Assembly (NCBI RefSeq): GCF_037042905.1
Contig: NC_087251.1
Location: 3,350,001 to 3,414,000 of the forward strand
From: Lytechinus pictus
Lineage: Eukaryota
Direction of reading: 5' to 3'
Length of the DNA stretch: 64,000 nt
A model generated the notes under the pieces. The model was not told the DNA's origin. It ran no database searches and saw only the letters and a program-made list of their open reading frames with translations. Positions 8,839-64,000 of this stretch are shown here, one piece after another (position 1 is the first letter of the stretch; every line of letters begins with the position of its first letter). The translations under genes were made by a program, and so were the position numbers.

Positions 8839-9084
8839 ATTAAACTTTTGAGGACAACTGTACATGCAGGCCTTCATGTACAGTACATGTATCCAATACA
8901 ACTACAAGTAGGCCTACAGCATAACCAAAAAGAAATTAGGACAAGTTTCATTTTCTCATGAGCTCTTAATTTCAATTTGAACGTGACCTCTACACTTTCA
9001 TTGACAGTAATTAAAGTCACTCTCTGTCTCGATTTCCTGTCAATGTAAAACTTACAATTTTTTAAACTACATGTACTTACTTAA

Positions 9085-19843: not shown

Positions 19844-20466
19844 TAATACCCTTTTTACACAGGATTTTCTTAACCCCGGACTATCGCTAACCCCGTACTA
19901 TTTTTTTTCCTTTTCACACATGCCAAATTGTTATTGCTAAACCCGGATAAGGAATGCTTGCTTTTCACACACGAAACTCGCTAACCCCGGACTAGTGGTA
20001 GCTCATGAATATTCACGAGCGTACTGAGGGGTCATTCGGGTCATATCCAAAATCGCGCGCGCTTTAAATACATTTGTCGATCATTCGTAGTACAAGTACT
20101 TCACTCGGAATTTCTCATCGCCGTGTTCGCTGTTCATGAATATTCATTATGCTTACCTCTGATTGGACAACAGGGCCGGCTCTGTTGCGGGGCATGAATG
20201 GGAGCGCTTAGCCCACTTACGTTTTACACTAGCGATCTTAACCCCGTACTATCGCTCTTAGCACCGCAATTGCTGGGATAACCCTGCTTTTTTGCAGGGC
20301 CAAATAATCCCGTACTAAAGGTGGGGTTAGCCCACTTTGCAAAAATGCTGTGTAAAAAGAAAGTGGGCTAAGCTTAACCCCGTACTATAGGTGGGGCTAA
20401 ATAGCAATTTAGCCCCACCTATAGTACGGGGTTAAGGAAATTTTAGCGTGTGTAAAAAGGGTATTA
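19844..20466. mobile_element. MITE with taaccccg(t/g)acta repeats (TWA-flanked, PIF/Harbinger-like)
   Basis: taataccctttttacac ... gtgtaaaaagggtatta. Confidence 0.8.
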
Positions 20467-22481: not shown

Positions 22482-24281
22482 TGAAAGTGCAAGAACTGGC
22501 TTTTGTCTGATGTACGTCCGACCCCTTACATTTTTGCCCATACTTTCTATTCTTCATATTGCAGCCTGGTCCTGTCATGGTGTAATGATAACCTAGGTCA
22601 CATTTTATGATATACTGGAAAAAATAAAACACTGCTATTAAATCAAAGGAGATACAGCTCTTAAATGTGTCCGAATGTACGTCCAACCTTTATGGTCAGT
22701 ATGTTAAAAAAAAAAAAAAATTCCATGGTCGTATACCATATACATACAACTAAAATTAGCATCCAAGCAATATTTTAAACTAAAAAAAATTTTTTTTAAC
22801 ACAAATCATTTGTCAGAACACATGGCAACCAGAGAATGATATAACTGGGCAGTGCTTCAGTTCAGATCAAGCATGGTAGAGGTAAAAATTCTTAACCTAA
22901 TCTCAATAGTATATAGGCCAACAGTTTTCTAATGTGCATCTACATACATGTATACATTGTTTGTTCTGCAAGGTCATGTGCCTTGATGGTCCAGGGTAAA
23001 TTCCTTTTCAAGTTTAGTTATAAAGGTAATACATCTGAACAGGCTCTCTGCCTTCAAGGCTTGAATTCAAGCCTCCCATCAATCTGAGCCATGATTTCAT
23101 TTACGTCAATTACTCCTTCTTAAAGCAAAAAAGGAAAAAGAAACTCTTTGTGCTGTGTGGGGTTACCCTTCAGCCTTAGAATTGACCTCTAAAAGAAAGT
23201 CAGACAACTAACCACAAACCTTAATACCAACACAAAATTGACCCCCCCCCCCCCCCCCCAATGAAGTACCCAAATTCAGACAATGTTTCTGGAATCAGTT
23301 TACATGTGTAGGCCTACTTGAACTTGAAACATTACTTTGCTATTAAAGCAATAGTGACTGATAAAAAAAGCATGGAAATATTTTTTCCATATACTGTACA
23401 TGTCCATTTCTATGCTTAATGCTGCCCCCCCTCCTCTATTTAAATTGGAGTCTGGACAGTTCATACACATGAAGGAACATCTGAACTTTGAAACCACCAA
23501 GTTGGAGTGTGAGATAAAAATACAAATCCAGACCAATATCATCGACCTACAACGTCATAGGACACAAGCATTCCTTTGATGCAATGGTTATCACTGCATT
23601 TTGATTACAGTCACATTTTAGTGAATTCATTAGCTAACCGATGAATGTCATTTCCATGCAAATATGCAGGAAATACACCACAATTGCCCGGCTAATTGAC
23701 TGGCAAAGGGTGTGTTCAATGTCGATTTTAAAATTTAAATAGCAACATAAATCATGACTGAAAACTCAATTACAAATCACAGAACACAAACACGATCAGC
23801 GATGCACTGTTCAGTGTCCAAAATATAAAGCTGATTATTTGTAGATCATCTTTAAATTTCCCGCTTTCGTTGGCGCAGCTTTAATGCACAGTTTGACCCA
23901 TCACAAGAAAGGTAAATTCTTGCACCTGCTTGTATAGGCTTCCACTGCGAGACCAAATTTAAAGACGTTTCAAAACTCAACTGTGTTTAATGTAGTACTA
24001 GTTTAATGGCACATTCGCTATGCTAAAGGTCATAAAATCTGAGCTGATCGCACTTACAAACAATCTTTTATTTCTGTTTAAATTTTCCTCCGAATCATGA
24101 TTTGAAAGATGTTTCAATTTATGACCAGGAATGGAGGACATTGAACACACCCTTCGTTTTTCATTATGTCCATCTTTGGTAATTTCGTTTTCAATCATAA
24201 TTCATGTTAAAAACATACAATTGATTGTATATTTAATGTGTCTGGGCTCTGGGTTTATAAGCTTTACTATAGACTACCTAC

Positions 24282-24564
24282 CTTGACAGTAAAGTTACAA
24301 GTCCCTCCCCTGACCAGCTTCTCATCTTGCTGCCATTGGTGTGGCTTGCTAGCTGGGGGCACGTAGGACGTATCCTTGCTACGAAAACTCCTCCGTAACC
24401 GCTTCATGCTCAGAGAGCGGCGTAATCGACTCTTACGCTGTGGTCCTTGTGACGGTGAAGGTGATGCCACTGATGACGATGAAGGGGTACTCGGTCCAGC
24501 GTGGGAATCGTCGGCACTGTTACGCCGCTTGTGCTTGCTGCTGGATCCGCCAAAGAAAAATTTT
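24282..24564 (-). CDS. numb: Numb exon: N-terminal extension plus start of PTB domain ([16 protein letters not shown]...[42 protein letters not shown])
   Basis: Translation matches the Numb N-terminus (human [42 protein letters not shown]). Acceptor tttcacag before 24564, donor AAG|GTAGGT after 24282. Frame is open across the whole 283-nt exon; internal ATG at 24407. Confidence 0.96.
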
Positions 24565-25699
24565 CTGTGAAAAGGAAAGTAAAAGAAAGTGAATACCGTG
24601 CCAGATTACATTACTTGCCAAAGTTTTTAACAACAAAAAGTCCTGGTAATGCTGGTATATATATATATCCAAAAATATTCAATTGAATATGAAAATCTGC
24701 TTTGATATGCTGTAAAGCACTTTGAGCCATTATGGAAAAAGCGCTATGTAAAAACTAGTTATTATCATTATTATTAAAACCAAATCAAACAAGATATTTA
24801 TATTCTTTAATTTTTTAGAAAGTACTACAAGCACTAATTTTTGTATTGTACTGTATGTTGATTAACAGACCAGTTCGTAGTTCCATTCTGTGCATGATCA
24901 GTAGGTTATTTGAACTCAAATGGCATGTGGTTTAATATTCACTGAGATATGCACCAACTCTGATGTCTTGATTATTCTTTTGATTTTCAGTGTTTTTTGT
25001 TAGATCCACTGGAAACCAACAATGCATCCATTGGTTTTAACAGTTGACCAAGTATGTTGTACTTGCAATTTCTGAAAATTCTGCATCCTGCTTTATCAGG
25101 CATGATTATAATATCTTGCTTTGAAATTTGCCTATCCTAATAGAACAAAGGAAAGGTCATTTGAACAAAATTTGCCCATGAGGTAACTCCGAACTGGTGC
25201 AAAATGAAACACACAGTTCATGTTCAAAATCGATGACACAAATTCCGAAATTGTGTTCATAAAAAAATTCCAAGTTACTTTACAACGGACGACTAAAGTA
25301 TGTTTAAATAAATGATCATCATAGGTCATTAGACAAACATGTAACTCAACTGTATGATGTTGTGTATCAATATTTTATTTTCACTCCAGATTATTCATAA
25401 AACTACATTTTACAAGGTTTGCCTACATACTGTACAGTATATGATACAGACACTGTAAGCCTATACACTAAATACTAGTCAAACTACACTGTATAACTAA
25501 GCACTTGAATTTGCCCTGTATGTTGCAAGATGGCAGTAACAGGTAATTAATCTATTTCTGTTAAATTTTCAAAGCATGGGCAATTATCTGTGATGTCCAC
25601 CACGATCCAGTGGAGTTCATTGATACAGAGCACAAAGCTTGTTTTCTAGAGTGCCTGTCTACAGAGATATGAAACCCACTCGTAAGGCGGTGCTGCACC

Positions 25700-26145: not shown

Positions 26146-26618
26146 TATGCTTTTCACACTGCACTTTTTGTCCTAAATTGGTGGGGCTAAGGGGGGTCTT
26201 AGCCCCACCAATTTCCCGGGGTTAAGCTTAGCCCACTTCGTTTTCACACTACGTTTTAGCAAAGTGGGCTAGCACGGTAAATAGTACGGTACTATCTGGC
26301 CCTGCAAAAGAGCAGGGTTAGCCGGCTTATTGTGGTGCTAGCACCACAATTGCGGTGCTAAGAGATGCAGTGTGAAACGAAACAGGGCTAAGCAAATGCG
26401 GGGCTAAGCATTAGCCAATCACAGAAGTCGAAATAGCACGTTAATCGCGTTCTGCATGGTAAAATCATCAATATTTATGAGCTGTGTGATTGCCCGGGGT
26501 TAAGGCGTTAACCCCGGCTAAGCAATAGTACGGGGTTAAGAAAGACAGTGAATCGAAAAAAAGATAGTATGGGGTTAAGGATAGTATGGGGTTAATGAAA
26601 TGCAGTGTGAAAAGCATA
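26146..26618. mobile_element. Related MITE, reverse orientation, TAA TSD
   Basis: taa-tatgcttttcacactgca ... tgcagtgtgaaaagcata-taa. Confidence 0.8.
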
Positions 26619-28475: not shown

Positions 28476-28755
28476 TTAAATAGAGTAAAATGCATCGAGC
28501 AATATGCTAAAAATTTCATCAAAATCTGACAAGTAATGAAGTTATTAAATTTCAAATATAGCAATATTTTGTGAAAACAGCGAATGTGGTCATGAATATT
28601 CATTAGGTGGGTTGATCATAATTATTTCCTTTTTTCATACATGTGTGAATGATATATCTCCCTTGTAATAAGATGAGTTGCAACAATGAATATCTACATT
28701 AAATCAGAGTATGCTCCATGCTAAAGCCGGGGTAATAGTAGCAACACTGCATTAA

Positions 28756-29327
28756 AGGGATGGTTCGGGCTGAAAGTATTTATAGCTAAATAAATAGAAT
28801 TCACTGAGCAAAATGCCGAAAATTTCACAAAAAATCGGATAAAAAATAAAAAAGTTATTGAATTTTAAAGTTAAACAATATTTTGTGAAAAGAGTCGTCA
28901 TGAATATTGATTAGGTGGGCTGATGATGTCACATCCCCACTTGTTCTTTTGTATTTTATTATATGAAATAAGGTTTATTCAAATTTTTTCCTCTAAGAAC
29001 TAGAAAAATTGGATTGACAACTGATTTAGTGCATAAGATATTTATTGCTGCAATTTATTTCATTATAAGGGAGACATTATTCACACAAGTATGAAATAAT
29101 GAAAAAATTATGATTTTATGTAATAACGTAAGAAAACGGAAAGTGGGGATTTGACATCATCAGCCCACCTAATGAATATTCATGACTGTTTTCACAAAAT
29201 ATTGCTATATTTAAACTTCAATAACTTTATTATTTGTTATCCGATTTTGATAAAATTTTCGGCATTTTGCTCAGTGAATTCTACTCTATGTATAAAGATA
29301 TAAATATTTTCAGCCCGGACCATCCGT
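28756..29327. mobile_element. Kolobok/T2-type MITE family C
   Basis: ttaa-agggatggttcgggctgaa ... ttcagcccggaccatcc; related copies at ~2105-2713, 27511-28700, 51876-52395. Confidence 0.82.
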
Positions 29328-30774
29328 TTGAGTGCAATATAAATGTTTCATATTATTAGCAAAACTTTAGTCAGGGAGAACTTCCCCTTCATGCATTAAA
29401 CTAAACCTGCATTTCTTGAATTCCTCAATACTACCAGTATGGTGATTCATGAATTATTCAGGGATACTAATGACATGTCTAGGTTTTTATGTATAATAAA
29501 TGAAGAATAACTCAATTATTTTCACATTACAAATTCAGATGAGTCCCACAGCTTGGCTCTAAATCTCATTAAAACTGACATACAATCCATCTTCTGTGAG
29601 ACTGTGGTTTCTTGTGTTGGATGCAAGGATTTAAAGCAACGATTTTCAGCCAGGAATCCTAATTTTTTGTAATATTTGAAACATGTTTTTTTTGTATATG
29701 AAATCTCATTTACAAGTATCACAGAGTCCCAATATACAGCTTACAAGGTTGAAATAATCCAATTAGTATGCAAAATTCATCAAGAGTTCGATTATAATAC
29801 AAAGTAACTGTAGTACACTTTCTAAATGTATTTAGTCTGAGTTTCCTCAATCTCAAGATTCTGGTCCTATGCAGCAAACAATTATTTCATGAGAAACTAG
29901 AGAAAGTCTTTTAAATAAAGGTTAATTGTCAAAATCTATTCATACATCTAGATCTGGTACATTAATGCAGGGAAGAAATTTAGATTTACAGATTTGAATA
30001 GCATTTTTGGTCATAAGAGAAAAGCTTTCAACTTACATGTAGTAATGTACAGTCCTAGATGTAAAAATATGCTATACAAGAGACTTTATGCTTAGCAGTC
30101 TTTCAAAAATGTGGAGCAAATTGCAATGCGATACCAGGAAAATTATTCCCTGTAATGTAAACTTATCTTTGTAAAAATCATGAAATCTTATTCTCAAAGT
30201 CGATAATTCTGATGATCACTAACACAGAAAAGCATATGTGGGACAGTGTATTAATATTGCTTCGAAAAATACCCGACATTTGATGGAATTCTATGCTTAT
30301 TTTGCTCATTTCTCAGCAATAACACATTTTCTTCCAGAGCTATTTGGCATATATTTTATATATACAATACATACATGTACAAACACTTTGGTGGTTATTT
30401 CATTGGTTTCTGTTCGAACTCATTTGAAATTGTTAACACAACTGGTATTTATCTTAAATCTAGAGATTCAAGATACACTTCCCTGGTAGTACTGTACCCC
30501 TTCTCCACCAGCCTACATGAATTGGGGGGAGGTGGAGATTCTTGTGTGAAATGAGACCTTGGGCTATAGAGCATGAAAGACTGCATGTTTTCATAGCATG
30601 TGTTGGTATGGTAGACAACTACAGTGTAAATTATTCCGAGACAAAACAAGAGTGCATCCCCACCAGCTAATTCATTCATTAAATAGCTGGCTGTTTTAAA
30701 AGAAAAAGAAATTTAGAATTGGGTTTGCAAATTTGATAATAATAGGCACTTGTAAAGCATAATCTATCAAGATA

Positions 30775-31500
30775 TAGGGTGTGTTTATGCGCCACTTTTT
30801 TACCCTTGAATCATGATTTGAATCATGTTTAAATCATGATTCTGCAGAATCACGTTTGCGTTTTAAGTAAAAAGTGAAAATGAACGTCTTTCAAATCACA
30901 AACATGAAACACGGAAAAAGGGTCGTTTGGAAAGACATTTCTGTAGAATCACGAACGAAAAAGGTTGTATAAATGCAATCATGATTTGAATCATAATTCT
31001 ATGACGTCACTGTGTCGGGCTTCTTCCGGTTTGACTATTGCCAAGCTCAAGGCATGCGCTATTATGTGTGCTGTTATGCATGCATTTCTTATCACGTGCA
31101 TTTAACTTCAAGTTCTGTGTTGGTCATCGCATCGTCCACTGCTTTTCATTTTTTTTTGTCATGGCTTGAACATCGAGTTCTAGTCAATGAACTAACCCTG
31201 GTAACTAACTGGACAGACCATGATCTCAGTTGTTGAGGAGTTAACAGGGTCATTGCTGAAACACCATTTACGATAAACAGACAAGATGAGGTATAATCGA
31301 CTGAATTTTGGAAGAAAAAAAGATTGATTTTTTGAGAGCAGAAACATGCGCGAAAAAGTTTACCTATACTTCGGATGTCAAACTGCGCACTGTATCGGCC
31401 CGAATCCGAGGAGAAACAGCATTAGAATATAGGTCGTCTAAACCCTGATTCTGTGGTATTGTGATTTATGTTTAGTGTTATGAATCATGATTCAAATAAT
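30775..31500. mobile_element. AATCATGATT-repeat MITE, copy 1 (right end truncated)
   Basis: Homologous to 33042-33864. Confidence 0.75.
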
Positions 31501-31660
31501 GATCCGATATTGTTCAAGCTTTCACGTATCAACTTGTCTGATTTTTCTGTTTCCTCTAAAACTAATGCAAGTTTTTATTTGGGTTGGATTCCCCTTTTAA
31601 AGACATTAATCTGGCCGAACTATTCACCTTTAAGCCAGAAAAATGTCCTGCTAATTTTTA

Positions 31661-32030: not shown

Positions 32031-33041
32031 TATTTGTCTCCATTACCAGGGTACAACATTATTTTGATCAAGGTAGTCTGACTATCAATAGCAAGGTAAT
32101 TCGAAGACTTGGGCTGGTGCAAATGAGCTTATTGTATACAGTATGTACTTCTACATGTAGTTGACTTGCTCAAATGACATAAATTCAATGCAAAATAGGC
32201 CTACTATGTTGATATTGGTAAAGATTATTTTTTTCATCTGGACAACAAATAATTAGGCCCTACAGGCCTACTGGTATATCAGACCATTTCCTACATTGGA
32301 AAAGAAATGATGTACTGTATATGTACATGTACATCTGACAACCACTTCCATTAACTTTTATGCATACATGCAATCAAACTAATAAGCTGTGAAGACAAGT
32401 CGACTATCCCTTCCATTTGCCATTATGAAGAGGTTAGCTAGAGGCTGGAGAGGGCAATTATAACAGTTGTTAAATTAAAAAAATTTTACCAGTAAGAATC
32501 CACAAATAAAAGTACATACATGTACATGTAGGCCTACATTTTAATTATAGCTGTAATAATCAAGGACATGAAAGTAGATAACTTGAACCATATCACACTA
32601 AATCTAAATTGTGGTTTCAACAGACTGACATTTCTTTCATCTCTGATGCAAATAATCAAAGAAGGTAATGCTCTTATATCATGGAAGTTCATTTGTAGAC
32701 TCTTTCAATAAAAACAATTGTATCAATCATGGTCTAATCATCCGTACATTATCACATATCATGTCATTTGATTGAGAAATATTAAAGGCATTACACCAAG
32801 TATATTTCTCACTAGTTTTTACATACATGTATTTGAGCAAAAAAATGAAATAAAAAGATAAACATCCATATAAAACTAGAGATCAGGTCTACTTTTTAAT
32901 AAATGACACAAATTATTCATTTAATCACATCCATGTAAATTAACTGAACTAGTGCCCAACAAAATGCCCCAAATTATGATATAACCTTTATAGCTGAAGT
33001 ACATTCAACTTTATGTAGTGAGCTGGTACAGGTACATCACA

Positions 33042-33864
33042 TAGGGTGCGTTTATCCGCCACTTTTTTACCCTAGAATCATGATCTGAATCATGATTCAA
33101 ATCATGATTCTGCAGAATCACGATTGCGTTTAGTCGAAATTGAATATAATCATGATTAGAATCACAAACATGAAACACGAAAAAAGGGGCGTTTGGAAAG
33201 ACGTTTCTGCAGAATCACGTACGAAAATGTTCGAATAAACGATATCGTGATTTGAATCATGATTATATATGACCTCACATGTGTCGGGCTACTTTCGGTT
33301 TGACTCTTGCCAAGCTCCAAGGCTCTCTATATGCTCATTGTATGTACATGATTACTCTGCATGCATTTCTTGTCATGTTCAAGTTCTGTGTTGGTCATCG
33401 CATCGTCCACTACTTTTCATTTTTTGGTCATGTCTTCAACTTCAAGTTCTAGTAAATGAATTAACTGGACAGACAATGATCTCAGTTGTTGTTGAGTATA
33501 GAGTGTCAATATTAAATTGGATCTACGCTGAAATTCACTTCCGAACACCATTTTGGATAAACTAACAAGATGAATAGAAGCATATGGACCCTATATGATA
33601 GAATTAAACAAAATTAGGTATAGACTGAATTCTGGAAGCAACAGATTTTTCGAGAGCCGAAACACGTGCGAAAAACTTCCTCTGTCAAACTGCGCACTAG
33701 TGATGCGCACTGGATTGGCCCGAATCTGAGGAGAAACAGCATTGGAATGAAGGTCGTCTAAACGCTGATTCTGTGATATCGTGATTCATGTTTGTGTTTT
33801 GAATCATGATTCAAATCATGATTCAAATCATGATTCTGGATTGAGGTCGCATAAACGCAGCCTA
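33042..33864. mobile_element. AATCATGATT-repeat MITE, copy 2
   Basis: tagggtgcgtttat ... ataaacgcagccta termini; subterminal aatcatgatt palindromic repeats. Confidence 0.82.
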
Positions 33865-34190
33865 AATATACATGTTTGGTCCACCAGCTGATCTGCCTTA
33901 CCATAACATGCCAAATGTCATGAAGATTGAATTAAAATCTCTGGATATGGTGACCTTTCAACATCAGCAGCAAGCCAGCAGCAACCACGATGTGTAGACA
34001 GTATTCACATACACATGTGCATTTACAATTTACATAATCAGATCTCAAATTCATAATCAGATTGGGTCCTGCTTGTTATGCTAATTTCTACATGTTTCTG
34101 TATAACTGTCTACTGGTAACTTGCAGCCTTGCATCCTACATAAATAGTACATACATGTATGCCTACATGTAGCAAACAGAGAGTCTTTCT

Positions 34191-34715
34191 TAGGGTGCGT
34201 TTATCCGCCACTTTTTTACCCTATAATCATGATTCCAATCATGATTCAAATCACGATTCTGCAGAATCACGATTGCGTTTAGTCGAAATTGAATATAATC
34301 ATGATTAGAATCACAAACATGAACTACGAAAAAAAGGGCGTTTGGAAAGACGTTTCTGCAGAATCACGTACGAAAATGTTCGGATAAACGATATCGTGAT
34401 TTGAATCATGATTATATGACGTCATTGTGTCGAGCTATTTCCGGTTCTTGCCAAGGCGCGCGCCCCACGTTGTCACATCACATGTACGTCGCCGACCTCC
34501 AATTAAGTGTCCAACGTTGACCTATACTTCCTGGGTCAAACTGCGCACTGTGATGCGCACTGGATCGGTCCGAATCCGAGGAGAAACAGCGTTGGAACGA
34601 AGGTCGTCTAAACCCTGATTCTGTAGTAATTGTGATTCATGTTTGTGATTTGAATCATGATTCCAATCATGATTCAAATCACGATTCTGGCTTGAGGTCG
34701 GATAAACGCAGCCTA
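34191..34715. mobile_element. AATCATGATT-repeat MITE, copy 3 (shorter core)
   Basis: tagggtgcgtttatccg ... cggataaacgcagccta. Confidence 0.82.
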
Positions 34716-34982
34716 AAAGTCACTCTCAAAGTACAAACAGCTTTATGAAACGGCCCCCTGGGTGGTTTACAGGAAAGATACATGTATAGTTTAGGCCTGT
34801 ATGTTCATGTATGTTTGAAGCCTACATGTACACAAAGTCATGAACACAACTCAATACTCAGTAGGCCTAAAATACATGCTTCCAAAATTACATCATTCTT
34901 ATAACTTTTTTTGTTTTCCATAGAATGTACTAGCTTTAAAATTAAACTAAATTTTGTCTTCTGTCGAGTGAAAATTAATGAA

Positions 34983-35960
34983 AAGTGGAATGCCTCTGGC
35001 GGTCTCACCTGCATCACGCGATTCAGTATAGCAGTGCTGACTTTGAAAACTACTATAACTTGCACAAGATGTTCAGTGATACTTGGTTACTCTTATGTAC
35101 ACGTTTTATGAACTAGACCAATACACAGTTTACAGAGATATGATGGTAATTCAACAAATGCAACCAACATGGCCAAAGTTCATTGACCTTACAATGACCT
35201 TTGACCTTGAACATGTGACCTAAAACTCGCACAGGATGTTCAGTGATACTTGATTACTCTTATGTCCAAGTTTTATGAACTAGACCAATATACTTTCAAA
35301 GTTATGATGGTAATTCAACAAATACCCCCAATTCGTCCAAAGTTCATTGACCCTAAATGACCTTTGACCTTGGTCACGTGACGTGAAACTCGTGCAGGAT
35401 GTTCAGTGATACTTGATTAACCTTATGTCCAAGCTTCATGAACTAAGTCCATATACTTTCTAATTTATGATGACATTTCAAAAACTTAACCTTAGGTTAA
35501 GATTTTGATGTTGATTCCCCCAACATGGTCTAAGTTCATTGACCCTAAATGACCTTTGACCTTAATCATGTGACATGAAACTCAGGCAGGATGTTCAGTG
35601 ATACTTGATTAACCTTATGTCCAAGTTTCATGAACTAAGTCCATATATTTTTCTAAGTTATGATGACATTTCAAAAACTTAACCTGAGGTTAAGATTTTG
35701 ATGTTGATTCCCCCAACATGGTCTAAGTTCATTGACCCTAAATGACCTTTGACCTTAATCATGTGTCATGAAACTCAGGCAGGATGTTAAGTAATACTTG
35801 ATTAACCTTATGGCCAAGTTTCTTGAATTAGGTCCATATACTTTTTAAGTTATGTTGTCATTTAAAAAATTTAACCTTTGGTTAAAATTTGGTGTTGACG
35901 CCGCCGCCGTCGGAAAAGCGGCGCCTTTAGTCTCACTCTGCTATGCAGATGAGACAAAAA
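34983..35960 (+). mobile_element. Pearl/Tsp/HINE-like tandem-repeat element (best preserved)
   Basis: subTIR gtctcacctgcat / atgcagatgagac, (gcc)n, terminal hairpin, internal tandem array. Confidence 0.82.
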
Positions 35961-36127
35961 TATGGTAAAACAAGAATTGAATATAAAAAAAGTCAGCAGC
36001 AAAATCATGACAATGACCTAGTTTGGCAAAAAAGAATGTTTTATTTCCAGAATAAGAAATGTCTGTTTTCAGGGGCTATTTTACTTTCACATTGGGTTGA
36101 TTGTTGAATTTGGAGACGATTTCTTAA

Positions 36128-36717
36128 AGGACAAGTCAACCCCAACAAAAAGTTGATTTGAATAAAAAGAGAAAAATCCAACAAGCATAACAATGAAAAT
36201 TTCATCAAAATCGGATGTAAAATAAGAAAGTTATGACATTTTAAAGTTTCGCTTAATTTCACAAAACAGTTATATGCACATCCTGGCTGGTATGCAAATG
36301 AGGAGACAATGACGTCATCCACTCACTATTTCTTTTGTATTTTATTATATGAAATATTCTAATTTTCTCCTCATTGTCAAGTGATACAACGATTAATTCC
36401 TCCCTGAACATGTGGAATTAACATTGTTTAATACTATATGGTTCAGTCAAGTTGGTCCGTATTGTCAAATCTAGAAAAAATGAAATATTGTATAATTCAA
36501 ACAATAAAAAACAAAAGAAATAGTGAGTGATGGACATCATCGACTGGCTCACCGAGCTGTGCATATCACTGTTTTGTGAAAAATAAGCGAAACTTTAAAA
36601 TGTCTTAACTTTCTTATTATACATCTGATTTTGATGAAATTTTCAGCACTACATGTATGCTAGTTTGATTTTTCTCTATTTATTCTGGTTAGCATTTTCC
36701 TGAGGTGGACTTGACCT
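36128..36717. mobile_element. Kolobok/T2-type MITE family A (reverse orientation)
   Basis: ttaa-aggacaagtc ... ggtggacttgacct-ttaa. Confidence 0.88.
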
Positions 36718-38134
36718 TTAAGGGCTACTTTTTTTAACAGCAGGCAATGAAACAATAAATGAAAATATTTGGTCTATAATGGCGGATATAGAATACTGAA
36801 ATATTCTTGAATATGCCTTCAGCCCCCTAATTGAATGCTTGGGGTAACTCTTTAAGTTGCCCCAAGCATTCAATTAGGGGGGGGTTAGGGGTGATTTGAG
36901 CTGTCATGAGGGCAATTTGCCTGTTGCCCTCAAATATTTCTCATGCTGCTTTATTCTCTGTTTAACATGACAAATTACATAATCATCTATTTAAAAAAAA
37001 TGAATCGATCATTATTGAAGCAAACAGTTGACGTATTGTTCATGTTTACACAGTTACAAGTCTGACATCTGGCCTTGGTAAATTGCATTATTCTGGTTTT
37101 CCCATCACTCACTGGGTGGACTACCATACTGTTTACTTTGTGTACACTATATTATTCATTATGAGTCATGATATTCAAAGAATGTTTGATTGCTACTTCA
37201 TCACCTTGCTTGGACAATACCAGGAGCATAGATCATTTGTGCTATTTCAACATTCTTGGTGGACAAAAACTGAATAAACATTATTCTTATAAGAAAATAC
37301 AAAAGAGTAAGTGAAAAATTGCATCCTCATTTGCTCATTGCATATTAATGAGGACATGCTAGAAGTTACCATATAACTGTTTCAATGAAATGATGCAAAA
37401 CTTGAATTGTCATGCATGTACATGTACATGTACAGTGTATTAACTTTGTTACCTTGTGACATATTCCTCATCCAATATATTCAATGAAATGTTCAGTGTT
37501 TTGTTTGATTTTATGCTATCTATTTCAAATTGCATAATTTTCAGCCTGTTGTACCCATTTTATTTCTATCTATTTAAATAAATACTAGTACTGGTACATT
37601 CAAAGGTGAACAGGAGAAAAATTCACAAGAGTATATTGATTAAATTTGGACAATATTACCTTTCAAATTCAGGAAGAAATAATGAATATCATGAGTTTTA
37701 TCAATCGTTTTAGAGGACATTAATTATCAGCTATCATAAAATGAATACCATCAATAAATTATAATGACCCTTTAAGGCCGGGTAAGATTATCTTACAATA
37801 AACCAAAGTTCAATGTTAAGTTCACAGTTTTAGGTGACACTTACTGGCTTTATAGAACTTGACTAGAAACTGATACTTACAATATCTACACAATATTTGA
37901 ATTACTATGTTGTAAGTACTATCAATTGGCATTTCCTTTTGAAAGTTTCTTTATCACGTGTGGGATTACACTGTCTATGTACACTTACATTGTACAACAG
38001 ACACATATTCAGTATAAAAGCTACAATGTACATGACAACTTGAAAATTCTATAGATCTATATGTATATACATGTATCTCAAATTTGTTTTGAATAATATG
38101 AAGATCATAACCCAAGAAGAAGACAAAAAGAAAC

Positions 38135-39036
38135 AAGTGAAATGCCTCTGGCAGTCTTGCCTGTATTACGTGATTCGATATATAGCAGTAGTGCTGACTT
38201 TGAGACGGCTATTGAATAATTATTCACAAAAGAAAACATACATATGATAATAAAATACTATGTCCACTGACCCAAAATGACCTTTTAACATGATCATGTG
38301 ATCTAAAATGTGTGCAAAACAATAATTTATACTTGATTACCCTTATGTCTGTTTCATGAACTAGATCCATAAACTTTCAAAATTACAATGGTCATTAAAA
38401 AAAACCCAACATGGCCAAAGTTCATTGACCCTAAATGACTTTTGACCTTAGTCATGTGACCTGAAACTCGCACAGGGTGTTCAGTGATACTTGATTACTC
38501 TTATGTCCAAGTTTTATGAACTACATGTAGCTCCATAAAGATTTAAAGTTACAATGGAAGTTGAACAAATACCCCTATCATGCCCAAAGTTCATTGACCC
38601 TAAATTAGTTACTGACCTTTGACCTTGGTCATATGACCTGAAACTCAGGCAGGATCTTCAGTGATACTTTATGTGTAAATTTTCATGAATTAGGTTCATA
38701 TACTTTCTAAGTTACAGTGTATGATGATATTTCAAAAACTGAACCTTAGGTTAAGATTTCAATACTGATTCCCCAAACATGGTCTAAAATGTAAATGACC
38801 TTTGACCTTGGTCATGTAACCTGAAACCAAGGCAGGGTGTTCAGTAATACTTGATTACCCTTATATCTAAGTTTCATGAACTACATGTACATGTAGGTCC
38901 ATCCATACTTAAATTCTAAGTTATGTCATTTCAAAAACTTAACCTTAGGTTAAGATTTGATGTTGACGCCGCCGCCGCTGCTGCCGTAAAAAAACGGAGC
39001 CTTTAGTCTTGCTCTGCTATGCAGGTGAGACAAAAA
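38135..39036 (+). mobile_element. Pearl/Tsp/HINE-like tandem-repeat element
   Basis: Same family as 34983-35960. Confidence 0.78.
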
Positions 39037-41095
39037 TCATACTCAGCAACAGATTGAAAATGAAAAGTCTTCATTAAGAAACATCAACATTCCAATCAAT
39101 TTGTAATTCGATAATTATTTCTCTATATACTGCATGATGGAGGTAGACCTAAGACATAGTAAAAACATTGTTGAGAAATTATGTTATGAAAATCTACAGT
39201 TAAGCCTATGGCATAATTCTTGAGCACTAAAATGGATGCAAAATAAACAACAGTATAAATGCCAATGTCACAAAAACATGTAGGCCTACATCAGCATGAA
39301 ATACTCATTTATGATACGCCTACGGTAACGCACACCATCCTAGTTTGCTCTTATCAACATTAGTTTGATCTGTCTCCTTCATCATGGACAAATGATCATA
39401 TGCATATTAGAAATAAATTCATGGTACATAGCAAAGGTTGTCTGATACATTTACACTGTATATATATTTATCTTTGAATCTGTCAGGACTGAATGAATGA
39501 TAGTAATGAGGAGTACTCACCCTCCTATTAAACACGGTTCATTGATCAAACAAATCAAGTGATGAGTAAATGATAATCCTATTTCAACACCTAAGATTGA
39601 AAATTGGTTTTCTTTAATCCAAGCATTCAAGCATCCAAAAATAATCCTCTCCTCCTCTGAAAGCCAACATACCATGTACACCAATACCACTGAAAGTGAA
39701 AAGCAGATGTAGCATCTGTATGGGTTGGACTACATCCGCTTGGTTCCTTCGCCTCACTGTAATAACCTGCACATCATACCAGCCACGCACATTTGTGCAA
39801 GGAGACAAAAACTTGCTTCTGTGCGTGCTGTGCCATAATGTAAATACCATAAGTGAACCGACGGATGGATGGTGTATCCATACATACATTTACAGAGTAG
39901 TCAATGAAAAGAGAGTGAGGCTGAGAGACTCATTGTAAAGGCCTTCTCTGTTTTGTATACAAGGCATTGAGAGAGTTCACAATGAAACAATGAAATATTG
40001 ATTGGCCAGCAGTACACCCAACACAAATTGGCCTTCCATATTGCAAGTGTTTGGAATACAAACATATCTGGAAAAGGTGTCCTTGCAATTCCTTCACAGC
40101 AAGAAATAAATTGGAACTGATTTATATTGGAAAGGTTTCCCATGAATGTTTGTCTTTACAAATGACACATATCATTACCAAGCCTTGATCAGTCCATAAG
40201 CAATTCATGCCTTGTTACCTATTTTGCTGTCAATATGAATAATTATGGCATTCATTCAAAAAGTGACATATCAAATAAATTTGTAATATTTTAAATTTCA
40301 TATTTTCTAGAGAACATGAAATAACAATTAACATTGTAACAATTACATGAGTTCTCATCCATAACAATTTAGGCATTTACGTACAAGTAGATTGAAAGTA
40401 CATGTATATTATCAGATGGTGGTGCTATGGGGGGATAGGGGCTATGACTTTCAAGTAGTACAAAAAAGAACAAGAGAAATGAAGGAAAAAGTCCGTCAAA
40501 AACAGAGGTCTGGGTAATATATTTACCCATTCAATCGAGAATAAAATATCGACTTTAATGATATGTTTTGGTCTTGCCACCTCCAATCAAATTGCTCCAG
40601 CACCACCCTGTTTACAATTACACATTTATTCAATATGCTGTAGGTTTATATGTGTGTGCGTAAGCATGGATCTACTACTCTGACAGATAGTTCTATGGTG
40701 TAAGCAAGGGAAATGATGAACTACAGCATGTACATGTAAACAATGATAGTAAGTTAGGTCATGAAATATTCATGTGAAGCATTCATAATTTATGACTGAG
40801 TAGAAACAGCTCATATGCACTTGTTAATGGTACCAGCAAACATTCCCTGGCAGCAAATCAGTCATGTTAATACAATCTACATTATACCTCAGCTTCACAT
40901 TCGTTGAAAATAATCTATTAATATGATCACTTTGCAATAGTAGTAGGTCCATGGTAGCAAATAGAGCCATCATAAAATTAGATTGGAGATAACTTATATG
41001 AATGCTGTTTTCTCAATGTACATGACATGAACTACATGTACATGTACATGGAGGAGCCTCAAGGTATAAAATTAATTAACAACTCCTACAATGTA

Positions 41096-42064
41096 CCGTG
41101 TTTACATGCTGCATCGGCTTTTTTGTTGCGTGTAAACGCGATAAACTTGCATCGGCTCTCGGTGCAGAATCTGCAATTTTGCACCACCAAAGTAGTAGGT
41201 TCAGAACCACGAACCGATGCAGAATCGACAATTGGCGCCATTTCATTTACTTTACCATTATGACGTACTTGTAAGCACAAGGATCCAGCGTTGTCTTTAA
41301 AGGTCAAGTCCACCCCAACAAAATGTTGATTTGAATCAATAGAGAAAAATCAGACAAGCACAATGCTGAAAATTTCATCAAAATCGGATGTAAAATAAGA
41401 AGGTTATGACATTTCAAAGTTTCGCTTATTTTTAACAAAATAGTAATATGAACGAGCCAGTTACATCGAAATTAGAGAGTCGATGATGTCACTCACTCAC
41501 TATTTCTTTTGTTTTTTATTGTTTGAATTACACAATATTTCAATTTTTACGAATTTGACCTCCTTGCCTGAACCACAAAATGTTAAAATAATGGAATTCC
41601 ACGTATTCAGGGAGGAATGAAACTTCATTTCACATGACAATGACGAGAAAATCAAAATATTTCATAATTCATATAATAAAATACAAAAGAAATAGTGAGT
41701 GAGTGATGTCATCAGTTCCCTCATTTGCATACCGACCGGGATGTGCAAATAACTCTTTTGTGAAATGAAACAAAACTTTAAAATGTCATAACTTTCTTAT
41801 TTTACATCCGATTTTGATGAAATTTTCAGTGTTATGCTTGTTGAATTTTTCTCTTTTTATTCGAATCAAGTTTTTGTTGGGGTGGACTTGTCCTTTAATA
41901 TGACGTATACTGTTGGTGCGTGAATCATTTCAGGTTTTTGCCTCGCAAGCCGATTCTGCACCGCATGCTGTGACAGCGTGTAAACGCGGTGCAAGATAAA
42001 CCAAAAGCCAATTCTACATTGGCGTTTGGTTCTGAACCAAAAGCCAGTGCACGTGTAAACACGG
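41096..42064. mobile_element. Same TA-flanked MITE family, hosting the 41301 element
   Basis: ta-ccgtgtttaca ... tgtaaacacgg-ta. Confidence 0.78.
41301..41894. mobile_element. Kolobok/T2-type MITE family A
   Basis: TTAA TSD, TIRs; closely similar to 7222-7824. Confidence 0.88.
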
Positions 42065-44229
42065 TATCCATCATCAACATGTGTTTGAGGGACACGGCAT
42101 ACATGCTATACCGGTATGCTATCCTGCTATACCGGTATTTGCTCCTGTCTTAATATTTCCTAGAGCAGAGGGTTAGAGTTACATGTAGGATTGTAAAACA
42201 GTTTATGGGGTTCAGAATAATGTAAAGATTAGGATTGGGGTTTATATAGTTTTGGAGGCTGAGTTATTACTAAGAGCAACTGTTATGGAACTGTGTTTGA
42301 AGCTCCTTACAGAACCCATTTCCTGTGATTGAGGTATCAAATTAAAGAGTAAGCCTAAATATTGCACTTCAGACATGCAATTTTCTTTTAGGTCTCTTTT
42401 CGTCAAATTGTTTTTATTCTCTCATGCGTGAATGAGGAATTGTTTTGTGATTTAGTCATGATAAATCATTGATAGTTATTTTTTGTGGGATGTTCTGTTT
42501 AATTTCTTGTTCCAGACTCATACTATAGACCAAGACACTTTCCCTTCTGTGTGAGCTGTTCCTAATGTACGTACACATATACAGAACTGCTGTTCACAAG
42601 ATAATGTGCCGGCCTGCCAATAGCATAGGCTATAGATAGTGCTCATCCTAATTTGCCCAGCACACATCATTTTCTTTCTCATGCAAGCATTTCCATCGGC
42701 TATTGCATGTATAAAGCACATTCAAATGTGATACAACTTCATGATTGTGCTCTACATATTTTCCATTTTTCTTATTACATACATAGAACATGGGTATTTT
42801 ATTACCCACTTACATGTACATGTACTTTACTTGAAGCTGCTTGTAGTATTATGCTTCATTTTAATTCCTTATACTAGCACAAAAAATATTGGAGCCGGAA
42901 TTGGCTGCAGCCTCCCCACCCCCCCCCCCCCATACAAGTAAAATCATGGGGCATAGTAGGCTTCCTTGTGTACACTGCAAGCAGGGGCATTGCTTGCTAC
43001 AGAGGGGGGGGGGGGGGGCAACCATCCACTGTAATTTTCATGCACAGTGGAATAAAATATTTATTTATTTTTTCCTATTTCTGTTCATTTCAAATTACCT
43101 TTCACATTTAGAACCAGAAAGTAATTTGAATAGGGGCTACATTGTAATTACAATATTTTTGACATTTTTTAGGGGGGGTACAGCTTTCATCCCCCATAAG
43201 CATGGATATTAATTGAAACACACTATGCATGTTAACATCATATATATATTATTTTAGAAGATATATTTTTTAACTCCCTGCAAAAGACTATACTAGGGCT
43301 TACGTGTAAAAGATTCAACCCTAAAAAAAATAACCAACCAAAAAATTGAAAAGATTTCCACAATAGTCAAAAGTAATGACTAAAGCCTATTTTGTCAACC
43401 TTAACAGAGTAAATCATGCTTACCCAATATTCATGACTGGTAATTCTACTGGAACACGCTGCATACGGGAAATCCAAATACACAGTTAATAGACAGTCCG
43501 ATTAATCAGCAACTTCTATGTGTAATTTAATTCACTTGCTATTGCACTCTGTGAATCAACTACATGAACGATATAATTTATATTAAGCTGATTGTTAAGC
43601 AGTATACAATGCAGGATCAAAGTACAAGTTTGCTCTTCAACTGCAAAGTTTATCAGCTGATTTCAAACATAGCATGTAGGCCTATTACATGTACCTCACA
43701 CCAGACAAGAATAGCTAGTCCTGTGAAAATAGCTAAACACAAAGAGTCTCAGGAACTAGAGGTATATACACAAATATTGTGAAGATTCTGTATACAAACT
43801 TAGTCACTAAAAGTTCACTCAAAATGTATGAACAAATGCATGATGGCTCAATAGGTTTTTCACAAACATGTATTGAGGGGTGGGGCATGTACAGGTCATA
43901 ATGTTCATGCAAATGTTACAATATTACAGTATGTAGTGCATCGAGGCATGAAATTTAATTCAAGTTTATTGCTATGTGCATTTAGATTTGTAGAAAAAAA
44001 TATTAAAGCAAAATAGTGCACATTATGTAGCTTTACATTAGCTAGATGTACATGTACATTTGAACAATGGTTTATCAGCAGTGGCTTGCGTAGGATTGAA
44101 TAGATTCAAAGGTCCAACTACTGAATAGACCTTACTGTATTATCATCATTCATTATTTCCAAATTTCTCATTGAAAAAGAAATAGGGAGCCAGCATCCAC
44201 ATTTGTATTGAAAAAAAAAACATGTTTAA

Positions 44230-44834
44230 AGGACAAGTCAACCCCAACAAAAAGTTGATTTAAAAAAAAAAGAGAAAAATCCAACAAGCATAACACTGAA
44301 AATTTCATCAAAAATCTGATGTAAAATAACAAAGTTATGACATTTTAAAGTTTTGTTTTAATTTCACAAAACAGTTTATATGCACATCCTGGTTGGTATG
44401 CAAATGAGGAGACTGATGATGTCATCCACTCACTATTTTTTTTAATTTTGTTATATGAAATATGAAGTATTGATTCTATTTTTCTCCTCATTGTCAAGTG
44501 AAACAGAGATTAATTCCTCCCTGAATATGTTGAATTAGCATTATTTTAATACTACATATTCAGTCAAGTTGGCCCTTATTGTCAAATCTGTAAAAAATGA
44601 AATATTGTATAATTAAAAAAATAATAAAAAAATAGTGAGTGAGGGACATCGACTTCCATTTGCATGTCAATGAGATGTGCATATAACTGTTTTGTGAAAA
44701 ATAAGCAAAACTTTAAATAAAATGTCATAACTTTCTTATTTTACATCCGATTTTCATGAAATTTTCAGCATTATGCTAGTTTGATTTTTTCTCTATTGAT
44801 TCGAATCCAAATTTCTCTGGGGTGTACTTGACTT
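44230..44834. mobile_element. Kolobok/T2-type MITE family A, degraded right end
   Basis: Aligns by eye to 36128-36717. Confidence 0.8.
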
Positions 44835-45675
44835 TTACAGGGGAAGTTCATTGTGACCATTTTTTTTAAGCTTGCAGTTAACAACAGAAAAAAAATATTG
44901 GTGAAGGTTGAAAAAAATTCATCAAAGAATACAAGAGTTATGAAATTAAGAATTTTTCATTTGTGATGTCATATCAGCAGCTTCCCCATAGATAATACAC
45001 ATGTAATATAAATTCCATGAATGATATTTCTTTCAATGAAACATGTAGAATAAAAATACAATATATATATTGGGGGTTCAATAGATGTGTCTGATGATAT
45101 ATCAACTGCAAAAACAAAATCACTTTCATTTTTTGTTTTTGTTTAGAAAATCAAATTTAAAAATATCTCACACAACATGCAAGTCTGTGACATAAAAAAA
45201 ATCAAATACTTTAATAAAGAAGAATTTAACCTGTGGAAAAGTTAACTTGTGTGAAAGCAGAAATATAAAAGAATTACATGTAGATTACCGGTAATGAGAG
45301 TTTTGAAATAATTAGACATGCACTATGAGAGTTACATTCATGTACCTGTATACAAATGATGAATGGGTTAGAGTGGGTCAGTAGGAAGTGTGTGCACAAG
45401 GTAACTTTGGCATGGTTTAGACCAGCCATTCTCAATTACTTTTTTTGAAGCGCCACATTTCTTGTTGAGAATCTGTAATGCTCCACTATCCATTACGCAA
45501 ACCAGCAATGTATCAGCGGAGGGGGTCCAGAGGCCCCTGGTGGGGGTCGAGGGGGCAGAGCCCCCAGAAGTTTTGGAATATTAGGCCTTTTAAATTGCCC
45601 AGAGGGGCTCTAATTAATATCAACAGAAGAAATACAAATGCCAACAAACTACACAATATTAATATTAAAAGAAAA

Positions 45676-56500: not shown

Positions 56501-57299
56501 TAGCTCCTGAAAAGTTACGGCAAAGTGTTTTTGCCTAAAAAACACTCAGAAAAAACACACACAGCTTTGGGGGATTACCCACTTTGCATATTTTACATAC
56601 GTAGGCCATCATTACAAAATGCATAGACTTATAATTGAAAAATTGTTGTTTTTCAATTTGAAAAAGATATTAGTGCATCATAATCATTGGCAAAATATGA
56701 ATGTAGATACATGTACAGACTTGTACAGTATCAAAGCGTCATGTAAACTTGAAACACTATGTACACAACTATCTAAGTAGAAGGTACTATCATCAACATG
56801 TAAATATGCCTACCGGTACATGTAATTTGTAACTGAACATGGACTTTGAAGTTTGAACATGAAATGTAGACCCAAGGCCAAGTCAAAGAAAACAAGAAAT
56901 CTTTGAAAATTGTGTTGAGGTTTAATGAAAAAGAATCATGAATTGAAGCAACTAAGATAGATTAAATTGATTCAGACAAGAAATCACACAAGATATGACC
57001 TTTTCATATAGGAACAACCATACTTCTCCATGGCAAACTGTCAAGTGTCATTGATGAATAACATTATAAAACCAAGTACGGTAGCAATGCTAAACTTTAT
57101 CAAGTAATGATCGAAGGTCATGGCATGCATAATTCTAACAATTTTAACATGAATTAGATCTATCTAGATTCTACATTTCTAGATCTAATTAGAAGTTAGA
57201 ACAGAAGATTGCAGAAATTATGGATCGCATATCACATAGACCACAATTTTTTGCTTGCACATTCTATTCAGAGTCAAAGTCTTTAGAAAAGAGAACTTT

Positions 57300-57910
57300 C
57301 ATTTTTCATATTGAGATTCGTGTACCGGTACTAACGTTAAAACTGTCTACCGCCGTAAAAAAAAAAGTACCGGTATACGGTACCACCTCCCAGGCTCCTG
57401 CCTCTCTAAATCCGCGCCCTCCGCCTCCGGTACCGTATACCGCATAAATACTTGTCGGCTAATTAGGCTAGATCTAATTTAATACTAACGTTAATTAGTC
57501 TCAGTGACAAATAAAAATCTGAAATTCGGCTAGCAAGAAAAATACATACCTAAATATTAAATCTGCTGGTTTTATCCTCAAGTTGAAGTTCCGAAAATCC
57601 CTTCTATAAAAATTGATAAATTTAAGGGCTTATCTCCTGTGGTGTGATTACGTAGCTCAGTCATGGGTTCATGGCATGGGTTATCTTCTGCTGATATTTC
57701 TTCACGGTATCTTATTATCGGTAATATCATATATTACCGGTACACACGTACACACATACACACACACAACGAGTATACCATACAACAAAGCCATACACAC
57801 ACAAAAACACTTGCATCGCGATATGGCTGTGCAAAATTACGTGCAATATGCAGCATTCTGAAAGGGTGGCCGTGGCGCCGCGTTCTTTTGCAGATGATAT
57901 TTTTCAGCAG
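57300..57910 (-). promoter_or_regulatory. CpG-rich putative promoter / first-exon region
   Basis: Local CpG retention (ccgcgccctccgcc, gccgtggcgccgcg) in otherwise CpG-depleted non-repeat DNA, (CA)n tract, adjacent donor site. Confidence 0.45.
57550..57850 (-). other. numb: Putative non-coding first exon of numb
   Basis: Donor TTTAG|GTATGT at 57550/57549 inside a unique, CpG-enriched block; no ATG in frame with the downstream exon. Upstream boundary approximate. Confidence 0.45.
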
Positions 57911-58327
57911 CTGCTCTTTTCGAAGAAATCACTGCTTTTGAATCAATAATTTCTATTTCATTTTATTGAAAGTATAATAAGCTCTTAGAAAAAGAGGAAT
58001 GTTTTATATTTACGAACACTTTGTGATATAGCCATACAGGCCTACGTATATATTAAAGAATAAACGCAGCTCTCAATGTTTGGCATTGGTATATTGGGTA
58101 GAATTATTCTGCAATCAAAACCAAAACATATTAACAGAGGCCTTGGCCTTATAAAAAAAGGAGAGAGCTAGAGAGAGAGAGGGGGAGAGATACGAGGGGA
58201 AAGAAAAACTGACTGCATCTCATTGCAATTAAACTACAATCAACCCACACATGTTTTTTGTTCTATGTCTCTTCAAAATTCTTACTATCTGACCTGTGAA
58301 TGTATGCGTGTATAATTCATTTGGACT

Positions 58328-61733: not shown

Positions 61734-62908
61734 CCATATTATATCACTAATTGTTCCTACAAAATTGGAAATCAGGTTTGCAGTTGGGGTAGAATTTGCA
61801 ACATTTTGTCCCTGAATACAATTCTAGTTTCTTTATAAATGGTCTTCAGTACATCCAACCCATCCATCAGCCAGTTCAAATTGATAGGTAGTTTACAATG
61901 TCTGTTAAAAAGACTCTCAAGTCAACTCCTAATCTGTTAAAATCCATTTATAACACATCCTACCTTATTCCAACTCTGTAGGGCAAATGACAATTAATAG
62001 TGATAATTAATTTGAGGTGATGGGGTATTCTTTGTGTTCAAGCCAGTCTAGACCTGATCATAAAAACATTTTCTACTAAGATTACTTTGTTCTTACCAAG
62101 AATAAAACACTTAGTACTATTATTATTATTATCATACATAATTTTTGAGCTGGTTTCAGTGACATTTCCCAAAATGCAGTGAGAAATAATTTAGTTTAAA
62201 CATATCTTCATTCAAAATAACGCTATTCATAAGTAATGCATTTATATGTATCACTCAAATATCTCAATCATTAGGGATGCAGTCAAGGCCAGTATTTCTG
62301 AGTCACAAGGCCATTGAAAAAAAACATCTCCCATACCCTTTTTACACCAAACTTGGCCAGAGGCCAAGGCCAGTCTTGACTACATCCCTTAAAAAACAAA
62401 GTAAAAGTGAAAATCAAACTCACAAAAACTTGAAATGTAAATTTATTATTGAATACAAATACATTCAAAAGAGAGGAAATGGGCTTTTCAAGGTGAGTAG
62501 CTTATTCAAGCAAGATAGGCTAGAGGAGTGTAATGTACACATTTAAGAGTTGCTGTCTATAAGAGCACCAAAGATAAAACAAGAAAGAAGAGTACTGGAT
62601 ACACTCATTATTTCATTCATGTGGCAATGAATTAATGATGGATAGCATTCAAGTAGATATTGTATTTTAAACAATCAATGTACATTATTCAATCAATATT
62701 CAAGCTCATGGAGTACTCAATATAACAAAGAAGACATAATTTGCAAGTATATATCTGTTTTCACTTTGGCATGCATAAACTAATTTAAAAAGATAGTACC
62801 ATCGTGCACTTTGGTTTAAATTTGTATTTTTGTAAATTGTATATAATTCCTAGTTAATTTCATTTTCAAACAAAATCAATTTGAAATCTCTCATTAGAAA
62901 ATAAAAGG

Positions 62909-63175
62909 CAAAAAGAAGCTGCTGAAAACTGCTTATCTAATAAAAGAGAGCCAATGGAGTAAATTAGAAAGTCAAAAAGGGGCCTAAGCTTTCGATCCTA
63001 GCAGAATCTTCGTCGGAGGCAAAATGACAATCATATAAAGTGGAACAACCATAATATAGACCACAAACAGCTTGTTTGTGGTCTATATTATGGTTGTTCC
63101 ACTTTATATGATTGTCATTTTGCCTCCGACGAAGATTCTGCTAGGATCGAAAGCTTAGGCCCCTTTTTGACTTTC
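62909..63175. mobile_element. Penelope-like element remnant: inverted pseudo-LTR palindrome with hammerhead-like motif
   Basis: Direct repeat tagaaaataaaagg at 62895-62908 and 63176-63189; perfect inverted arms 62965-63069 and 63073-63177. Confidence 0.7.
63122..63160 (+). ncRNA. Minimal hammerhead-ribozyme-like motif (mirror copy on - strand 62982-63020)
   Basis: GCCT-CCGACGA-A-GATTCT(gct)AGGATC-GAAA-GCTT-AGGC: stem I, core variant, stem II, GAAA, palindromic AAGCTT in place of stem III. Confidence 0.5.
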
Positions 63176-64000
63176 TAGAAAATAAAAGGTATGACCTTCA
63201 CATAAGAGCTTGCACTTTTACCTCAAATCATGTGATGAATCAATGCAAGAGAAATTTTCAATTGAAAAAAACATGCATAATATATATTTTCTTCTTTTTG
63301 CTTTTAAAACAGTGCAAAGTTTATAAAAAGATTTAAACTTTCATTGCTTTGTTTGCAATGTCCAATTTATAAAGAGCAATGTCACATAGAATGAATCAGG
63401 TGTAATTACTTTACAAATATACCTCGTCTATTAATCATACATACAAGGATATAGTAATGAAATCTATCAGATAAATTCCAATGCTCAATACTCTGTACCT
63501 CTACAAATTGATAGATATATCATCTTACGAGCAAATATCAAACTAAATTTGATTTGATCATCACTACGAAAGAGGGGTAGATAAAAAGCAATATTTACAT
63601 CTGTATTTACAATAGAATAAAAGGTCACCCTTCATTATGTCATAATACTGTACTTGGATAGTACCATTACAGGAGACATCAACATGACTATAATTCTTCT
63701 ATCATACTCAAAATGTATCTATATATGACTACTCAACACCCTTACTTAGGCAAAGTGAATGAAACCCTTCATGAGAAATGCATCTAGCAAGCTAACTGCA
63801 ACCTACTAATATCTTGCCAAAGGACAGCGGCTAGGCATTAAACTGTTGATTTTTTTTTCAATTCACTAATAGGTGTGGTATTTAGCACACCAGGTTTCTG
63901 TAACATATAGACATACAATTAATTTACAATCAATTATAATGTATTGTACACAGTTAGCCAGGAAACTAAAATTGTGCTTAATTGTGAAATTAAGATACTC

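Follow-up and report, generated by a model that had tools for sequence, protein, structure and literature searches.

The perfect palindrome found near the end of the window (the whole 64,000-nt stretch of DNA analysed here) is very probably a recent non-autonomous insertion, in which two short 3' ends of a high-copy Penelope-like element (PLE), probably a member of the Neptune type, stand head-to-head between 14-nt target-site duplications (TSDs). The original prediction, which saw in it a very young Penelope-like insertion whose arms each carry a minimal hammerhead, was supported and fitted all the tests run. An inverted 5'-truncated copy together with a one-sided tail has been described as a hallmark of PLEs (PMC8557442; PMC3846280). 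Such 5'-truncated head-to-head copies were present in the window and in 8 of 28 loci of a related family, a one-sided tail with two recurrent 3' boundaries was found in the window's family and in all eight of those inverted loci, and TSDs of variable length at AT-rich DNA were detected both here (14 nt) and in 6 of 17 related loci (11–16 nt).

The anatomy of the insert is collected in Table 1. The arms proved free of mismatches around their GCT loop, as had been read originally, the unpaired stretch foreseen as about 55 nt measured 56 nt, and the 14-nt direct repeats on both sides were confirmed to be exact. The whole insert spans 267 nt without any ORF remnant, 2 nt of the right-hand repeat also belong to the right arm, and target microhomology amounts to 2 nt at either insert end. 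The second-longest perfect palindrome of the window has arms of only 30 nt. Regarding the direct repeats, an exact copy 100–400 nt downstream exists for 339 of the window's 62,000 14-mers, so a 14-nt repeat alone is no proof of a TSD; this one counts because it sits on both recurrent end points of the family. Within the 64-kb window, self-BLAST of the element recovered no further copies, and a tandem array was looked for at the insert locus and found absent, the arrangement being head-to-head.

Table 1. Features of the palindromic insert and of its two hammerhead motifs (positions in the window).
Feature	Position	Strand	Details
Left TSD	62895..62908	+	14 nt; last 2 nt common to family tail end
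Left copy, 5'-truncated 3' end	62909..63069	-	sense strand; short upstream stretch, hammerhead, tail
Tail (unpaired piece)	62909..62964	-	56 nt; left copy only
Left arm	62965-63069		105 nt; 100% complementary to right arm
Minimal type-I hammerhead motif, left copy	62982..63020	-	C at position 4 = 63015; cut predicted after 62986
Loop	63070..63072		GCT, 3 nt, at head-to-head junction
Right copy, 5'-truncated, tail-less end	63070..63177	+	last 2 nt common to right TSD
Right arm	63073-63177		105 nt; 100% complementary to left arm
Minimal type-I hammerhead motif, right copy	63122..63160	+	predicted cut after 63156
Right motif, stem I	63122-63125/63157-63160		
Right motif, core	63126-63132		C at position 4 = 63127
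Right motif, extra A	63133		
Right motif, stem II	63134-63139/63143-63148		
Right motif, GAAA	63149-63152		palindromic stem III adjoining
Right TSD	63176..63189	+	14 nt, exact copy of left

Scanning for minimal type-I hammerheads, with C or T allowed at position 4, gave two matches in the window, corresponding to the two arms, and none in each of 30 block-shuffled windows. The mirrored hammerhead-like motifs noticed originally, one per arm, agree with the published consensus in stems I and II, the extra nucleotide after A9, G10.1-C11.1, the GAAA, the palindromic stem III and the NUH, the exception being U4. Instead of a CUGANGA (or UUGANAA) core, both arms carry C at position 4, so the non-canonical CCGACGA pointed out in the original prediction was verified. 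The minimal hammerheads in pseudo-LTRs of metazoan PLEs, described by Cervera and de la Pena 2014 (PMC4209133), are alike in their 4-bp stem I, 6-bp stem II starting with G-C, additional nucleotide between A9 and G10.1, palindrome in place of a real stem III and U-rich 5' side. According to the same source, copies are mostly solitary or form opposite-strand pairs 100–700 bp apart, and a U3-A8 variant exists among them. However, the C4 of the window motif is absent from the representatives examined in its supplementary Fig. S3, and the two sea-urchin motifs of that figure have stems different from the window's. The hammerhead search suggested as a check gave a divided outcome, as the motif scan picked out the two arms but no Rfam hammerhead model did. 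At gathering threshold, Rfam returned no match in the whole window, and a relaxed search of positions 62800–63300 produced sub-threshold matches only, none to a hammerhead family; the best were miRNA-hairpin models, which is a consequence of the perfect hairpin.

Contigs from four of the 23 listed sequencing runs could be placed on positions 61750–63072, which include the left flank and the left arm (204, 333, 225, and 1388 contigs in X1, X2, X6, and X12, respectively). Runs X1, X2, and X6 belong to one organism (A) and X12 to a close relative (organism B). Summed depth, which does not equal copy number, ranged from 1e4 to 3.5e5 over the insert versus 7 to 100 in most flank bins. Loose ends of the family clustered at 62901–62911 and 62960–62975 in all four runs, family contigs started at 62907, and the 56-nt piece showed high summed depth, many family contigs, and loose ends at either boundary. 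These recurrent ends identify the 56 nt as a one-sided tail typical of Penelope-like elements. In addition, the end of the right copy is mirrored within 1–5 nt by family loose ends at 62960–62964, and the insert consists of two copies of one family that end at its two recurrent 3' boundaries. The family also runs on past 63069, as shown by loose ends there (X1, 11 contigs; X2, 3; X6, 8; X12, 16), and it appears in the contigs as single truncated arms too. The loop letters match the sense strand of the family in X1 and X6, and the right copy probably starts with them.

Palindromic MITE-like repeats are common in the window, and long TSDs suit some DNA transposons. A palindromic MITE with a fortuitous likeness of its terminal inverted repeats to a hammerhead is nevertheless scarcely credible for this insert, because the family continues beyond the palindrome centre and exists as single arms, the tail is one-sided, and the core covaries between species. 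A MITE or DNA transposon with symmetric terminal inverted repeats was largely refuted by the one-sided tail and the run-on past the centre.

The window copy differed from the majority letter of the three organism A runs by a single substitution, at 63031, which indicates a young insertion. The corresponding letter is present in both arms (mirror position 63111), and no X1 contig carried it. One contig of X1, which may be the source sample, crosses the left junction and penetrates 28 nt into the insert, below the 31-letter bridging rule, a reach that would fit a 31-mer unitig entering the repeat at 62907. Orthologous flank contigs of organism B extend no further than 62833 among the matches listed. 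Neither a joint with a strand change at the palindrome centre nor an empty site appeared in the four runs, whose coverage comprised the left flank and the left arm. This unconfirmed junction, the perfect arms, and the behaviour of X1 at 63031 would be compatible with a fold-back artefact, arising either from a chimeric long read that duplicated a single stub or from polishing that homogenised the two arms. Such an origin seems very improbable to us, as distinct unique flanks lie on both sides together with the 14-nt TSD, and both ends coincide with true family boundaries. The same anatomy is also found in short-read contigs of the related family, although polishing could still explain the perfect identity.

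Elsewhere in the left flank, 94 nt at 62272–62367 are absent from the orthologous contig of organism B and lie between near-identical 13-nt repeats (62284–62296 and 62365–62377); this region is possibly a second small insertion. Depth was raised in X6 at 62245–62334.

A metagenome scan with a stem II-to-stem I pattern recovered the 28 loci of the related family; 27 of them came from the same assembly and the remaining one from a second. Stems I and II are the same as those of the window, and the tails downstream of the hammerhead are homologous by alignment. Of the 26 loci in which these core positions are represented, 22 have U3-A8 and 21 have U4. The 3' ends lay mostly about 16–22 nt or 76–80 nt past stem I. 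An inverted copy at 400 nt or less upstream characterised the eight inverted loci (compared with none of 300 control pieces), and in every one of them one arm extended to the tail end (99–103), while the other halted at 38–55. The direct repeats found at the ends of the 6 loci mentioned above were exact, and the layout of locus L006 reproduces that of the window's insert almost exactly. Very short single-arm insertions, consisting of approximately the hammerhead with or without the tail, were observed between 12–16-nt direct repeats at L019, L025, and L026; pieces of 65 nt (62964–63028) resembling them were noticed among the contigs of X1 and X2.

In the alignment built from these loci (A1, 18 of the 29 motifs), 99% was paired. 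As the search pattern itself dictated stems II and III, only the change between C3-G8 and U3-A8 counts; this compensatory difference between hosts lies outside the pattern, represents one event, and was reached by 30 of 500 shuffles. Covariation, whose absence among copies was originally named as a refutation, was seen between hosts at the 3-8 pair, with stems II and III being uninformative.

The link between the arm and Penelope ORFs, also anticipated, was seen for the related family only, at 1 of its 28 loci, while tblastn of 91 PLE proteins against the 64-kb window yielded no match. At that locus, L001, the hammerhead end is placed head-to-head with a reverse transcriptase (RT) fragment 460 nt away (PF00078, E 2.2e-5, under the gathering score). 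The full-length homologues of this fragment, found in echinoderms, are proteins of 850–930 aa with an RT, a C-terminal GIY-YIG, and a CX2-5CxxC linker; their occurrence fits the sea urchin taken to be the host of the window. The approximately 430 nt from RT to hammerhead in L001 matched other loci marginally above shuffles (40 vs. 36 and 42 vs. 39). By extension from these homologues, the window's family may encode the same Neptune/Nematis-type linker. Scans of viral contigs and prokaryote genomes gave no confirmed RT and no hammerhead motif. A short hairpin with a 3-nt loop is located at 1271–1285 of L001, where the inverted end with the hammerhead meets the RT fragment.

Published work suggests how such a structure could arise. 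In experiments with a purified PLE protein, both strands of AT-rich target DNA were nicked and extended, and reverse transcription began at two sites between which the tail lies (Frangieh et al. 2024, PMC11167929). By analogy, the GIY-YIG endonuclease of the element would have cut the two strands of an AT-rich site, with some 14 nt between the nicks, and one target 3' end would have primed RT at the tail end of the RNA, with the other doing so 56 nt further upstream, at an inner start site. The two cDNAs would have halted at about the same point, probably through copying of one 5'-broken RNA, and their 3' ends would then have been joined, resulting in the head-to-head pair. That a single RNA served as template is suggested by the identity of the arms, by their ends lying within 3 nt of each other, and by the rare letter that they have in common. 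The hammerhead would have been carried along as a pseudo-LTR motif of the element, with no host function implied. Hammerhead cleavage is dispensable for PLE insertion in vitro (PMC11167929). The two starts and the double nicking at AT-rich DNA are features of the Poseidon element PAc, but this element belongs to the Penelope/Poseidon clade and its hammerhead overlaps the ORF start, whereas the RT homologues of the related family here have a linker of the Neptune/Nematis type; head-to-head products of PAc are not described in the examined text of that article.

The same features that point to one template are also compatible with a different route, in which one cDNA of the same element folded over the 3-nt loop and primed its own copying. 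The arms agree throughout, even in the rare letter at 63031/63111, they halt within 3 nt of one another, short hairpins occur at the junctions of L001, L006, L017, and L002, and palindromes of this kind were read as self-priming by Arkhipova et al. 2013 (PMC3846280). However, this snap-back leaves unexplained why the second arm ends at the recurrent tail-less boundary. Moreover, L020, L024, and L028 have non-nested arms, each with sequence that its partner lacks, and fold-back copying cannot produce these, although it may still hold for the window copy. We therefore regard self-priming as a possible but clearly less probable origin of the insert than two separately primed cDNAs.

The insert resembles the head-to-head PLEs reported by Arkhipova et al. 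2013 (PMC3846280) and Craig et al. 2021 (PMC8557442), with an inverted 5'-truncated copy at the 5' end, a palindrome at the junction, a tail on one arm, and a TSD. It differs from them in its longer TSD (14 nt vs. 8–10 bp), in its longer tail (56 nt vs. 30–40 nt in the literature examined), and in being cut down to 267 nt without trace of an ORF. Like the insert, the non-LTR retrozymes of Li et al. 2026 (10.64898/2026.07.22.740005) are non-coding, PLE-related, and provided with type-I hammerheads, but they are organised as head-to-tail tandem units, unlike the head-to-head pair with a TSD found here. Taken by itself, the locus is of little importance, being a further truncated PLE insertion; as a compact record of a PLE insertion intermediate, it preserves two RT starts, two primed strands, and 2-nt microhomologies.

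Computed folds gave −201 kcal/mol for the hairpin versus −128 kcal/mol with the hammerhead stems forced, a gap of about 73 kcal/mol. Since the mirrored motifs lie on opposite strands, the transcript of either strand includes one motif plus its exact complement; no transcript would carry two hammerheads, and consequently no dimer could form in cis. The dimer action proposed for minimal hammerheads was not sustained in cis for the mirrored motifs, given this single hammerhead per transcript and a hairpin that out-competes the ribozyme fold. Judging from these folds, the hammerhead at the insert locus is most likely inert, buried in the 105-bp hairpin. The cofold of two monomers reached −27.0 kcal/mol against 2 x −9.6 kcal/mol, and its fold was not clearly a stem-III dimer. 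The dimer action treated in a review (PMC6765202) concerns tandem copies on the same strand.

Apart from its C4 core, the insert is unremarkable. A family with U4 in organism A would appear as a G>A change at 63015, and none was listed for X1, X2, or X6 at a 5% threshold, with long contigs covering the site and the change at 63031 reaching about 100%. C4 is accordingly read as the majority form and not as a defect specific to this copy; at the sequence level, it appears to be the majority form of the family in organism A, where reference mapping bias could hide a U4 minority. On balance, we lean slightly towards the view that a young, high-copy PLE family fixed a U4-to-C change in its minimal hammerhead, while a relative in another host has U3-A8 with U4. 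If so, either the C4 ribozyme would still cut, as a dimer or assisted by the PLE protein, or the family would have reached high copy with a dead ribozyme.

Precedents for the substitution come from other systems. A natural U4C variant of a viroid hammerhead, cited in Perreault et al. 2011 (PMC3088659), has considerably lowered activity in vitro and still permits infectivity. This is the same core change, but it occurs in an extended ribozyme with possible tertiary contacts, whereas the window motif is minimal, dimer-dependent, and part of a retrotransposon. A CYGANGA descriptor has been employed for viral hammerheads, with C/T degeneracy reported there. The literature searched contained no report of a C4 core in PLE hammerheads, and existing surveys of these ribozymes may list it. 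If confirmed at the family level, C4 would offer a natural comparison for whether metazoan PLE hammerheads must cleave, and spread with a dead ribozyme, if true, would constitute a natural in vivo test of the need for hammerhead cleavage in PLE transposition.

With respect to the genomic context, the assignment of numb to the window was corroborated on the minus strand from the exon at 2763–2999 (best E 6e-8). The kilobase 57001–58000 showed a CpG observed/expected ratio of 1.03, compared with 0.10–0.44 in the surrounding kilobases, and a minus-strand donor-like site at 57550. It is plausible from this composition that a promoter lies near 57–58 kb with a candidate non-coding first exon, putatively of numb. 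About 33 kb separate the numb exon at 24267–24605 from this candidate exon at 57550, which lies upstream of it, and further CpG-rich kilobases were seen at 1, 34, 41, and 46 kb. The insert is located about 5 kb beyond the promoter-like stretch, and read-through RNA would form a duplex of 105 bp, so that the hairpin might have been co-opted to regulate numb, by giving rise to dsRNA or small RNA or by acting as a cruciform. We find such co-option highly unlikely, as the insert is near-identical to the family majority, hence very young, shows no sign of conservation, and lies in CpG-poor sequence (o/e 0.13–0.36).

Several other repeats were detected along the window. A palindromic MITE-like repeat of about 610 nt is present in four copies that are 81–91% alike (7218–7828, 36124–36724, 41297–41898, and 44226–44842), with related pieces at 2104–2713, 9081–9227, 9953–10075, and 28752–29329. 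A dispersed element made of internal tandem units of 163–193 nt was found at 11130–12269, 15716–16605, 35053–35961, and 38129–39037. The perfect palindrome with 30-nt arms is located at 20373–20436, and a related one with 17-nt arms at 26175–26214; positions 20206–20422 match 26177–26393 in reverse at 73%. Finally, a repeat family with a self-complementary 12-nt tandem unit occupies 30774–31503, 33041–33866, and 34191–34717, and includes short perfect palindromes at 33798–33827 and 34645–34682.
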